A stretch of DNA of 64,000 nucleotides. Origin: Podarcis cretensis. Lineage: Eukaryota. The notes under the pieces were generated by a model. It saw only the letters and a list, made by a program, of their open reading frames with translations. It did not search any database and had not been told where the DNA came from. Positions 36,318 to 45,337 of the stretch are shown piece after piece. The translations under genes and the position numbers were made by a program. Each line of letters starts with the position of its first letter. Position 1 is the first letter of the stretch. The stretch is from NCBI GenBank assembly GCA_951804945.1, contig OX638149.1, forward strand, positions 93,496,001 through 93,560,000. The letters are read 5' to 3'.

Positions 36318-36382
36318 ATGGTGGATTACTACAAAATCCTGGATGTTCCCCAAAGTGCCTCTATGAGTGATATTAAAAGAGC
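36318..36382 (+). CDS. DNAJB2-like coding exon 1 ([22 protein letters not shown])
   Basis: 65 coding nt, the size conserved in DNAJB2/DNAJB6; strong Kozak atcATGg; donor gc|gtaaga. Confidence 0.93.
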
Positions 36383-39300
36383 GTAAGAGAAATCTTTCCT
36401 TGGAGTGCCCCTTTTCCTACAACCCTGTAATCTTAACCTTTCCTCATGTTGCTTCTCTGTCAGCATTTACCAGCAGGGCTTGATATTAGTAAGTGACTTA
36501 ATATCAGGAAAAGTGCCATAGTTCAGAAGTAGAGTACCTGCCTTGCATTTAGAAGGCCCCATGTTTAATTCCTGGCATCTCCAGGTAGGACTGGGCAAGA
36601 ACTTGGTCTGAAACCCTCAAGAGTTTCTGGAGATAAATACTGAGCCAGATGGACCAATGATCTGACTCAGTATAAGGCAGGTTCCTATGTTGTTAACTTG
36701 GCTTCCTCCGTGGACAACTGAGGCAGAAATCCAGTTGCAAGCTATTGCCTCATCATCACCATGATAAGTCATGGTCTGAGAAACTGTCCAGAATAATGGT
36801 ACTGGAAGATGGTCACTAGCCTATTTGGGTGGTTCTCACCATTATCATGGTGGAGAGCATAGGTGGATAGTTCTAGGATGGATAGCCACTAATGTTTGTT
36901 GCATCTTGTGAACTGTTCAGGTACAGGAGTAAAGTGCTCAGATGGCACCCAGATAAAAATCCAGATAACAGGGCAGAAGCTGAACAGAAGTTCAAGGAGG
37001 TTGTGGAAGCCTACAAAGTCCTTTCAGACAGTAAGGCACCCAGTTTCTCTTCAGTGCTCCTTTTCTTCCTCTCTCCAATAGAACATTCACAGTCACAACA
37101 GCTAATTTATTTTTGACTGATTAATCCCAAATAAAAACATAATGAACATGGATTAAACTTTGTCAACTGCTCTAGAATGCAAATAAATGAACAAATAAAA
37201 ATAGTAACACTCCATTCTTTAGGCAGCGACACAAGGTTGCATAAGTAATTCCAAACTTCATTCATCTTTTTGTTTGCACAGTCGGAATTGTTAACATATT
37301 TTTTCCCAATCCTTCAATGCACATACGAGACCATTCCTACATTTGACCTTTGTTTTCTTCCACTCCAGTTTAAGCTGATTAATCTAATCTCCATTTACAA
37401 TTATCTTTGGAAGGATGGAAGTTCAACCTTCTACCTTGCTGACAGAATGATATTTTTTTCTTTACAAAGGCTTGAATATGGAGCTAAACTAACTATGATT
37501 GGAGCTAAACTTTACAAGAAATATGGATTTGCCACCACTCTGTCCTTTATCTCCAATTTCTAGTAAAATATAGCACAGTTTGGACTGTGGGTCAAATTAG
37601 ACTCAGCAGGAGTCTCACTTTGGCTGCAAGGTTGTTTACCCCAAACAATACCCACCTGCTCTGCACCCGACATCATTTGGAACATAAGGTGTGGGGCACG
37701 TAAATACGTGGTTGCAAAGAAACAATAAGGAGTTTTAAGCACACTCTTGATTGTTCCTTTGCAAGCAGAGCTCACTAACAGCAAGGCCTTTGGAAGCTGG
37801 TGTGGTTAGGAGTCAAACTGCACTTGTAACTGGACATTTTTATTTTGTAGACCAGCTTTGCAAAGAGCTGCAGAGAAACAATATCCTTTTGCAGGCATGG
37901 TTTGCATCCAAACCATGCCTACAAAAGGCCAAAGCGGGGCTCACTGTCAATATAAATCAGTTGATCAGCACTAACAGCAGGCCCCTCTGAAGTTGTCGCC
38001 TGACATCATAAGACAATTAACAATTGGGCGGCTCTGCCCACCTGTCAAAGTGGCCTGGAGGTGGCAGTGGAAGTCATGTTCTGGCCCAGCAGTTGGAAAA
38101 GATACCACACCCCATCATGCGCTGTGCATCTCCCCACTGTCAAACTGATATTACATTCTTCACATCCACTTCCCAGCCATGCTTCCCCCAGGGAGGTTCA
38201 CCTGGCGCCTTCATCGTATCTTTTGGCAACAGGCAAAAACATTCCTCTTCTCTCAGGTCTTTGTTTAATTAGCCAGTTATGGCCTTTTAAACTGTTTTTG
38301 TTTCTTACTGTGTTATGTATTTTTGTGTTTTTATAATGTAAACTGCCCTGTGAGCCTCGGAAGAAGGGTGGCATAGGAATGGAGAGAACTGAGGTCCAGA
38401 GACAGCGGCTTGTCTAATAGTCACTGAGTTGGATTTATGGATGTGGTGTGGTTTGAATCAGGGGCTTCTTGGTTTCTTTAACATGATGCAGAACAGCAGC
38501 AATAAAACTGGAAAACTCAAAGCTAGAGATGAAGAGGCAGCTTGAAATTTCCTTCCACTTTTACCACTTTTTCCAGGAAGCACACGTAACCAGTATGATG
38601 GGAGCAGCACAGAGACATTCAAAGAAACAAGTGAGTAGTCTAGAGAAGAGGCCAAGGGCCTCGTCCCAACCTCTGATTAAGCCTAGTAACATCTCTAAGG
38701 CTTAGTGGGACTTACCAACCTGTCCGCTTCAGTTCCTCTTGCATTCATATTTTTCCAGCCTTTCACCACATTTCCACATCAGTTTGCATTTTTTTCTTGA
38801 AGCCCACATATTTTTGCGTTCATTTTTCCTAAAGTGCATGATTTTTGCATGTGACATTGCATCCACTCTATCCAGTTTTTCAAGCAATTTCCTCTAGTAT
38901 GATGCATTTTGGAACATGATTTTCATGAATATATGTACACTTTTTTGTACACAAATGTTGTTGCAAAATTCCGAGAGGTCTGACTTTTGAAAGATAGCTG
39001 TGTTTTGCTTTGTGTATTGGATATGCGAATCGGGTAGGTTTGCATTAAAATGCTAGGCAAACAAATTTCTCCCTCCGTTCCTAACAGGACATTAATGGTT
39101 CTGTTTAGCACTGGGCTCAGGAAAGCAACTGAACACTCTTTGCAGCTCTTTCACCCACTTTTTAAAAGGATTGCTCCAGCAATCTTTAAAAGGGTGGGAG
39201 AAACTGCTGCAAAGAGCATTCAGCCCTATCCTGTGCTTAGACAGGATTGTGGGGACCACAAAGGATTTCAGTGGGTGTGTGGATCAACCCACCTGTCAAA

Positions 39301-45300: not shown

Positions 45301-45337
45301 ACTTGGAGCGAATCAGTTCCCAAATGTGACTCATTGA
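36318..45337 (+). CDS. DnaJ (Hsp40) subfamily B protein, divergent DNAJB2-like paralog; spliced CDS join(36318-36382,36921-37030,38577-38630,39783-39866,40842-40935,41867-41937,43740-45337), 691 aa
   Basis: All introns are GT-AG with compatible phases; 2076 nt = 692 codons with no internal stop; J-domain with [12 protein letters not shown] and EVEEDG motifs of the DNAJB2/6/8 C-terminal domain. Confidence 0.85.
36510..36690 (+). mobile_element. tRNA-derived squamate SINE in DNAJB intron
   Basis: gccatagttcagaagtagagtacctgccttgcatttagaaggccccatgtttaattcctggcatctccagg...gatggaccaatgatctgactcagtataaggcaggttcctatgt. Confidence 0.75.
36921..37030 (+). CDS. DNAJB2-like coding exon 2 ([36 protein letters not shown])
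   Basis: 110 nt, ttcag| ... |gtaagg; HPD at 36946-36954. Confidence 0.95.
38577..38630 (+). CDS. DNAJB2-like coding exon 3 ([18 protein letters not shown])
   Basis: 54 nt, phase 1-1, ttttccag| ... |gtgagt; R..YD of J-domain helix IV; ends at c.229 as recalled for DNAJB2. Confidence 0.88.
39783..39866 (+). CDS. DNAJB2-like coding exon 4 ([28 protein letters not shown])
   Basis: 84 nt, phase 1-1, long polypyrimidine tract + ag, donor cag|gtaatc, open frame; little recognisable homology. Confidence 0.72.
39957..40103. mobile_element. hAT-like MITE
   Basis: Ends cagggctttttt / aaatagcactg; 8-bp TSD caagtacc/caggtacc. Confidence 0.75.
40842..40935 (+). CDS. DNAJB2-like coding exon 5 ([32 protein letters not shown])
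   Basis: 94 nt, tttcag| ... ag|gtaagg; NGKKITTKR motif of the DNAJB2/6/8 CTD. Confidence 0.9.
41463..41720. mobile_element. Tigger/pogo-type MITE (opposite orientation to the 22847 copy)
   Basis: TA-cagtggtacctc ... ggtaccattg-TA; internal 17-bp tandem ggttacatacgcttca x3. Confidence 0.9.
41867..41937 (+). CDS. DNAJB2-like coding exon 6 ([24 protein letters not shown])
   Basis: 71 nt, the size conserved in DNAJB2/6; EVEEDG motif; tttcag| ... g|gtaaat. Confidence 0.92.
43740..45337 (+). CDS. DNAJB2-like terminal coding exon (~532 aa Trp-heptad plus charged low-complexity tail)
   Basis: Acceptor ctcttgcag|gc is in phase with exon 6 (GIPVYDRE...) and continuous with the 515-aa ORF 43790-45337; AATAAA downstream. 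Confidence 0.85.

Follow-up and report, generated by a model that had tools for sequence, protein, structure and literature searches.

Can a class B J-domain protein do without the brake on its access to Hsp70? Autoinhibition of the J-domain by helix V, a helix of the glycine/phenylalanine-rich (G/F) region, is thought to be central to these proteins, and its loosening in DNAJB6 leads to LGMDD1, a limb-girdle muscular dystrophy (type D1). The question is raised by a DNAJB2-like gene in a stretch of 64,000 nucleotides from the lizard Podarcis cretensis (contig OX638149.1, positions 93,496,001 to 93,560,000, which is C1:93.50-93.56 Mb of genome G000 in our numbering). This whole stretch is called the window here, and plain positions refer to it. 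The coding sequence runs from 36318 to 45337, and an earlier note, made from the sequence alone, had proposed that the gene lacks both the G/F autoinhibitory exon and the tail of DNAJB2 with its ubiquitin-interacting motifs (UIMs) and CAAX end. In our reading the gene is a paralogue within the DNAJB2/6/8 group that squamates have conserved, and its product is probably, as predicted from sequence, a constitutively open Hsp70 co-chaperone. New here are valine 50 and lysine 54 of the J-domain as the normal state of a squamate paralogue, and a tryptophan heptad helix after the beta-domain.

The gene encodes a protein of 691 residues in one open frame over seven coding exons of 65, 110, 54, 84, 94, 71 and 1598 nt, all on the plus strand, with GT-AG borders at all six coding introns and an intact HPD motif. 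The first coding exon (36281-36382; coding part 36318-36382, 65 nt) holds untranslated sequence, J-domain helices I-II (Pfam DnaJ) and two in-frame ATGs, of which the one at 36309, 9 nt upstream of 36318, opens the 694-residue form annotated in Podarcis. It is followed by the 110-nt J-domain exon (36921-37030), with the HPD codons at 36946-36954, and by the 54-nt exon 3 (38577-38630), with J-domain helix IV and the start of the linker. Then come the 84-nt linker exon (39783-39866, core 39800-39847), the beta-domain exons of 94 nt (40842-40935) and 71 nt (41867-41937), and the last coding exon of 1598 nt (43740-45337).

All six coding junctions, and both exons of the 5' untranslated region (UTR), are present in contigs from all four runs of study P1. 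It should be pointed out that these contigs are transcript-like, the RNA status of the runs being the tool's guess with none recorded as RNA, although the introns are left out exactly, and that 8 of the 14 listed runs were covered. For two runs from other organisms (X5 and X6, studies P2 and P3) two junctions are listed per contig, and the distance from exon 2 to the last exon is there exactly 302 letters, the sum of the four middle exons; runs X7 and X9 contribute short last-exon pieces only. Gene model and spliced contigs agree on the exons, the single frame and the HPD motif where the earlier note had placed them, the contigs show splicing into 43740 with no additional G/F exon, and six spliced coding introns bear out its view that the gene is not a retrocopy.

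We now turn to what lies between the J-domain and the beta-domain. For comparison, the same genome holds five further DNAJB2-type J exons in tandem about 6 Mb away (C1:87.52-87.59 Mb, minus strand, L022-L028), belonging to genes called A to E here, of which gene A (C1:87.52 Mb) is the canonical DNAJB2. On a profile of 161 distinct helix-V segments, the linkers of seven out of seven orthologues score -17 to -25 bits, as shuffled sequence does (p 0.18-0.52); cluster genes A, B, D and E reach +44 to +59 bits, scores rise to +63 when relatives are included, and a turtle gene has +13. A window restricted to the helix gives -5 to -10 bits (p 0.21-0.52) in five out of five orthologues. The linker contains 3 glycines and 8 phenylalanines in 53 residues, against 16 and 16 in 94 residues of gene A, and it lacks the F-x repeats before helix 5, which stabilise docking according to the accessible part of PMC12126530. 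In the introns, neither tblastn with 13 DNAJB2/6-type proteins nor blastn with 7 cluster exons found a G/F exon or a remnant of one, the searches returning nothing beyond chance words of 9-13 nt.

Structure prediction is in line with these scores. AlphaFold2 with DNAJB2/6 rows aligned gives the J-domain a predicted local distance difference test score (pLDDT) above 90 and leaves residues 78-116 without structure, while with orthologues only it places a beta-hairpin at 86-101, at a pLDDT below 40. There is no linker helix in either model, even when the DNAJB2/6 rows are aligned onto the linker. The 84-nt exon was also compared with DNAJB2 exons 4 and 5 as candidate counterparts, with nothing significant after seven tests each, the exon-4-versus-exon-4 controls having z 6-12; BLASTP of this exon against mammalian DNAJB2 gave no alignment. 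The proposed absence of the G/F autoinhibitory exon can thus be kept in the sense that there is no recognisable helix V and no intronic remnant, but an outright loss of the exon is not settled, the 84-nt exon being unassignable. The statement that no FTFR/xFF-type exon exists holds for the introns only: an FF pair (DGIKIFF) is present in the 84-nt exon, which is nevertheless shuffle-like on the helix-V profile.

The other side of the inhibitory interface is the J-domain surface, which we number as in human DNAJB6 (6U3R), the alignment being gap-free through residue 66. Position 50 (codon 37003-37005) is valine in 24 of 24 orthologue records and position 54 (codon 37015-37017) is lysine in 23 of 24, and gene C has M50/K54 in all three of its records. 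Among 195 records that bear helix V, only A, S, T or G is found at position 50 and never K at position 54, that is, V50 or K54 in none of them; in 32 other records without a detected helix V, V50 occurs in one and K54 in none. This survey examined 275 records, 254 of which fit the helix III pattern; since isoforms and numerous invertebrate sequences are among them, the records cannot be counted as independent.

Both positions are known from disease, A50V and E54A/K being LGMDD1 alleles of human DNAJB6 (PMC10624832). In the accessible part of that source, A50V has about 91% of the open form and a 6-8-fold stimulation of the Hsp70 ATPase, and E54A has about 43-53% of the open form, E54K itself not being among the variants assayed; E54 is described as pairing with R94 of the G/F region, and unregulated Hsp70 binding is given as the cause of LGMDD1. 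With V50 and K54 fixed, and with helix V and the F-x repeats not recognisable, both sides of the inhibitory interface appear altered toward opening. The earlier suggestion of an un-inhibited J-domain, which had been drawn from the linker, hence gains separate support as a prediction, with a remodelled brake staying as its rival.

Phylogeny connects the gene to the cluster. In a tree of J-domain and beta-domain together, in which 4 of 44 rows were omitted because their beta-domain pattern was unmatched, it falls on the DNAJB2 side of a branch with 93/99 support. A tree of the J-domain only makes it sister to gene C (97/92), and this grouping stays when positions 50 and 54 are removed (93/84; 36 of 40 rows). 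Descent from the B'(ST) subfamily is seen in the shared intron positions and in top matches that are all DNAJB2/6/8. The reading as an intron-containing DNAJB2-type paralogue therefore holds, on the basis of the shared intron positions and the separate canonical gene A, and an origin from the DNAJB2 cluster is likely, although not proven. The length of exon 3, proposed earlier to distinguish DNAJB2 (54 nt) from DNAJB6 (60 nt), was dropped as a marker, since it is 51, 54 or 60 nt within the cluster and 57 nt in lizard DNAJB6.

A number of observations weigh against an open J-domain of this origin, in addition to the dependence among the surveyed records and the restriction of the open-form figures to A50V and E54A. 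Squamates share the core of the 84-nt exon at about 92% identity, and its D-x-x-K-x-F-F lies seven residues before the splice site, which is also the case in the exon that carries helix V in genes D and E. HMMER placed the exon on helix V of 6U3R with low posterior, there are weak leanings toward exon 4 (B4 protein z 1.7, D4 DNA p 0.02, with seven comparisons each), and the hairpin predicted instead of a helix has low confidence. In the J-domain, a serine replaces a basic residue of helix II (K25 in DNAJB6), and the stimulation of Hsp70 could be weaker. As to parentage, approximately unbiased tests on J-domain and beta-domain accept joining the cluster (p 0.31) as well as joining DNAJB6/3/7/8 (p 0.41), so that the parent is not fixed; moreover, long branches could pull the gene and gene C together, and the tails of the two align weakly (z 1.1-3.9).

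Judged by its sequence, the 84-nt exon could accordingly be read as a remodelled brake, one that descends from the helix-V exon and docks on the J-domain anew. K54 might then pair with the invariant aspartate after the exon's first phenylalanine, in a charge swap of the E54-R94 pair of DNAJB6, and the protein would be autoinhibited and released by a different signal. The near-invariant core, the distance of the FF pair from the 3' splice site, the HMMER alignment and the exon-4 leaning all speak for this scenario. However, the FF pair is likewise seven residues from the end of exon 5 of gene A, the other G/F exon of DNAJB2, gene C has K54 without any such exon, and neither the helix-V profile nor the two AlphaFold2 models give any sign of the helix. 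In addition, V50 by itself is enough to open DNAJB6 almost completely, and at the position of F100 there would be an isoleucine, which is among the listed disease alleles (allele data from the accessible part of PMC10624832). We regard a remodelled brake as unlikely and continue with the open J-domain.

What could such a J-domain be attached to? The 94-nt exon carries a short serine-rich stretch and the first two strands of a DNAJB6-type beta-domain, and the 71-nt exon carries the remainder. The domain matches 7JSQ (E 3e-6), AlphaFold2 predicts five strands at 121-166 (pLDDT of the strands about 77-93), and the 94-nt exon is homologous to DNAJB2 exon 6 (DNA z 3.0-5.8 against the exon-6 homologues of the cluster). 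The C-terminal domain reported in the earlier note is thus retained. Of the serine/threonine-rich (S/T) segment that precedes the beta-domain in the B'(ST) proteins, there is only the short stretch rich in serine where exons 4 and 5 meet, the S/T strand having been replaced. An atlas search with residues 70-170 yielded only leads below 0.9, one of them a DNAJB8 cluster at 0.79, and a three-copy complex prediction for residues 108-222 had a score of 0.02, which gives no verdict either way.

Inside the last exon, a tryptophan heptad segment (43829-43915) has tryptophans at offsets 0, 7, 11, 14, 18, 21 and 28 and a cysteine at 25. Each tryptophan position is kept in 20-22 of 23 aligned rows, and AlphaFold2 predicts a helix at 195-223 (pLDDT about 65-78); neither Pfam nor the atlas search gave a usable match for the segment. 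The remaining tail of about 470 residues is charged, poor in hydrophobic residues and predicted disordered, with a basic patch of net charge +15 in 50 residues, and it ends in NVTH, without the CAAX found in gene A (CSLL). No UIM was found in the protein with Pfam, by which mammalian DNAJB2 itself falls below the cutoff (E 0.0045), and no UIM exon was found in the 64-kb window with tblastn. The absence of the UIM/CAAX tail and the presence of a new one were hence both foreseen correctly. Within the tail, the stretch 44895-44978 is tandemly duplicated in run X5, the Lacerta agilis protein shows a similar expansion, and the tail length differs among lacertids.

One may ask whether these parts are the main purpose of the protein, with the beta-domain, tryptophan helix and tail doing structural or condensate-forming work and the J-domain binding Hsp70 weakly or serving as a tether. 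The 71-nt beta-domain exon is indeed the most conserved part of the protein, two thirds of the protein are predicted disordered tail, the first strand is without an S/T run, and the helix II lysine is a serine. Yet the HPD motif is kept, the J exon is itself 92% conserved, Pfam DnaJ is matched in full with 84.5 bits, and the J-domain is predicted with the high confidence given above. A scaffold or decoy of this kind is therefore considered improbable.

The gene is widespread in squamates. A search with the last exon gave 20 matches, 17 of them named and all from squamates (lacertids, an amphisbaenian, iguanians, a monitor, a cordylid, snakes and geckos) and 3 unnamed; the public names are uncharacterised, hypothetical or DnaJ-like. 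Residues 55-228 gave 19 matches, the 18 named ones all squamate. Among 1.84 billion representatives, a profile matched five sequences with E <1e-119, all orthologues, before the scores dropped to J-domain-level matches. No orthologue outside squamates was found in these protein and profile searches, in which 50% clustering might hide a tuatara copy.

Conservation was judged by amino-acid identity. Among 12 full-length orthologues, the mean identity to the Podarcis protein is 92% for the J exon, 92% for the core of the 84-nt exon, 91% for the 94-nt exon, 99% for the 71-nt exon, 81% for the tryptophan segment and 52% for the tail, with exon 3 being the least conserved N-terminal exon (56%). Over the N-terminal 159 residues the gecko protein is 85% identical, the corresponding values for genes E and C being 80% and 72%. 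In the tree of J-domain and beta-domain the stem branch has 0.94 changes per column, and the orthologues differ by at most 0.11. The gene thus appears to have changed fast once, on the stem, and to have been conserved since, and we infer purifying selection since before the gecko split; in the accessible part of PMC12629976 the squamate crown is dated to about 190 million years ago. The earlier description as fast-evolving is consequently right for the stem but not for the orthologues. That the locus is a pseudogene or an artefact of assembly or annotation is most improbable, since, in spite of public names that are only "uncharacterized" or "hypothetical", the frame is open in every full-length orthologue with none disabled, conservation from gecko to snake is strong, spliced and polyadenylated contigs come from three studies, and the genome search finds a single copy of the last-exon start.

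It is important to note that the gene does not occupy the DNAJB2 position, which lies between the tubulin alpha-4 genes and the DNPEP side; the five-gene cluster is found there. The cluster is flanked by an M18-peptidase gene on one side and two tubulin genes on the other, presumably the same order as the human DNPEP-DNAJB2-TUBA4. Whether a canonical DNAJB2 exists elsewhere, a check proposed in the earlier note, can thus be answered in the affirmative, and the studied gene is not the DNAJB2 orthologue. The gene models have exons of 65/110/54/117/81/106/71 nt in A, with helix V, a UIM-type motif and a CAAX end, 65/110/60/117/105/103/71 in B, 65/110/51 plus a long exon in C, 65/110/54/111/103/71 in D, and 65/110/51/90/72/94/71 plus a long exon in E. 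The five genes differ in their exon losses and tails. Genes B-E have orthologues in other squamates (gecko, agamids, vipers), and a tortoise gene shares the E tail (z 21), which makes the tandem array older than the turtle-squamate split.

Gene C (C1:87.552-87.561 Mb, L025-L026; gecko LOC143829606) has, besides M50/K54, a serine at the F46 position and a last exon rich in S, K and E. No G/F exons and no beta-domain exons were found in its model, and its sequence makes it a second candidate for a brake-free J protein.

The studied gene lies between an EAF-family gene, which stops some 9 kb short of the window, and a POT-family transporter; an IQ-motif gene follows further up. We take these to be EAF2, SLC15A2 and IQCB1, which are neighbours in the human genome. 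For three other squamates (an agamid, a rattlesnake and a gecko), the records put the orthologue and one of the cluster genes on contigs of equal size, with 117 (agamid) and 84 (rattlesnake) locus tags between them, so that the relocation is probably old. We found no paper on the studied gene or the five-gene cluster, although supplements may list the gene, and the accessible part of the relevant paper on DNAJB paralogues makes no mention of reptile DNAJB2 duplicates.

How does the gene compare with known systems? It shares with DNAJB2 (HSJ1) the HPD J-domain, the beta-domain and, for exons 1-3 and the two beta-domain exons (65/110/54 ... 71), where the introns lie and in which phase; its product is 52% identical to the lizard's own DNAJB2 over 159 residues. 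In place of the two G/F exons of DNAJB2 (117 and 81 nt) it has a single, non-G/F linker exon. It further differs from DNAJB2 by V50/K54, a 530-residue last exon and another genomic site, and it has no helix-V signature, UIM or CAAX. Gene C is closest in the J-domain trees and likewise has a bulky residue 50, K54, no helix V and a long charged last exon, but its model is without linker and beta-domain exons and it stays within the cluster. DNAJB6 (6U3R, 7JSQ) is the best structural match, and its LGMDD1 alleles A50V and E54K (accessible part of PMC10624832) are the identical substitutions. There, however, they are dominant disease alleles in the presence of helix V, whereas here they are the fixed wild type with helix V not recognisable, and the S/T-rich anti-amyloid region of DNAJB6 is missing.

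DNAJB3/7/8 are also lineage-specific duplicates of the subfamily, but they are intronless and derived from DNAJB6; the studied gene keeps its introns and hence arose by DNA duplication. The lizard has two intronless members of the subfamily, at C2:85.8 Mb and C6:71.3 Mb. The latter (C6:71.32 Mb, L010) is of DNAJB6/7 type; its helix-V region is degenerate and the end of its beta-domain is shortened. As to the tryptophan segment, tryptophan zippers are engineered coiled coils. The segment resembles them in the 4-3 heptad spacing of its tryptophans on a predicted helix, but it has only about four heptads and may instead pack on the beta-domain or on a partner. Finally, B'(ST) J-domain proteins, that is, DNAJB2/3/6/7/8, are defined in the accessible part of bioRxiv 2025.09.06.674649 by features that include a beta-pleated C-terminal domain, an unstructured S/T-rich segment ahead of it, and the ability to stimulate the Hsp70 ATPase and to suppress amyloid formation. 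The studied protein departs from the G/F part of this definition while descending from that subfamily.

The transcript extends beyond the coding exons. There are two 5' UTR exons, at 34709-34911 (from spliced contigs, with the joint 34909/35165 cut +2; the start is approximate, 34669-34797 between contigs) and at 35167-35277 (joints in all four runs), and a 3' UTR at 45338-45538, with AATAAA at 45514-45519 and a poly(A) site at about 45538, where contigs end and a loose end is an A-run. In the contig of run X3, 1264 letters 5' of 34669 have no placement in the stretch compared, which could reflect additional exons upstream or transcription running on from the adjacent gene.

Elsewhere in the window, a long interspersed element (LINE) at 11604-14710 carries frames for an endonuclease and a reverse transcriptase that a frameshift near 14000 splits; a second, shortened copy lies on the minus strand at 19144-19915, and we take both to be of BovB/RTE type. 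The GC- and CpG-rich element at 49850-51270, inside which several hundred bases are directly duplicated, is probably a transposon. On the minus strand at C13:41.534-41.538 Mb (L062:4215-7756), the genome has a tandem pair of units. Each consists of a frame for a PYRIN domain (Pfam E 2e-23 and 5e-21) and, some 400-500 nt further downstream, an intronless stretch like the S/T and beta-domain of DNAJB6 (about 45% identity). From their sequences, these units are possibly a PYRIN-DNAJB6 chimera from a retrocopy.

Returning to the reading of the studied gene as an open co-chaperone, its history and action may be pictured as follows. The DNAJB2 locus would have expanded into the tandem array, in the branch leading to the studied gene and gene C the inhibitory helix would have disappeared in its recognisable form and a bulky residue 50 and lysine 54 would have become fixed on J-domain helix III, and the studied copy would have moved by about 6 Mb to its site between the EAF-family and POT-family genes. 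The HPD J-domain would then stimulate the Hsp70 ATPase without the release step needed by DNAJB6. The beta-domain, perhaps widened by the hairpin of the 84-nt exon, might together with the tryptophan helix provide self-assembly or partner binding, and the long charged tail might confine the protein to one site. We propose that, with no UIM, clients would not be routed to the proteasome as by DNAJB2, and that a protein with an open J-domain, confined by its tail and lacking UIMs, would serve to recruit Hsp70 in a targeted manner, not as a general chaperone against aggregation.

More tentatively, one can speculate that this is a natural brake-free DNAJB, in which myopathy alleles have been wild type for about 190 million years, the G/F linker has been rebuilt as a beta-hairpin that enlarges the client sheet, and a natural tryptophan zipper and the disordered tail assemble and place the protein in such a way that constant Hsp70 activation is useful and not toxic. 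It would belong to a reptile radiation, so far undescribed, of at least six DNAJB2-type genes. If true, the gene would put to a natural test the view that the LGMDD1 mutants owe their toxicity to unregulated Hsp70 binding. The gene would also allow a natural comparison, namely whether an open J-domain is tolerated once the G/F region, the S/T region and the UIM are gone or the tail confines the protein, and matched controls would be available in the same genome, with gene C as the sister and genes A, B, D and E as those that keep helix V.

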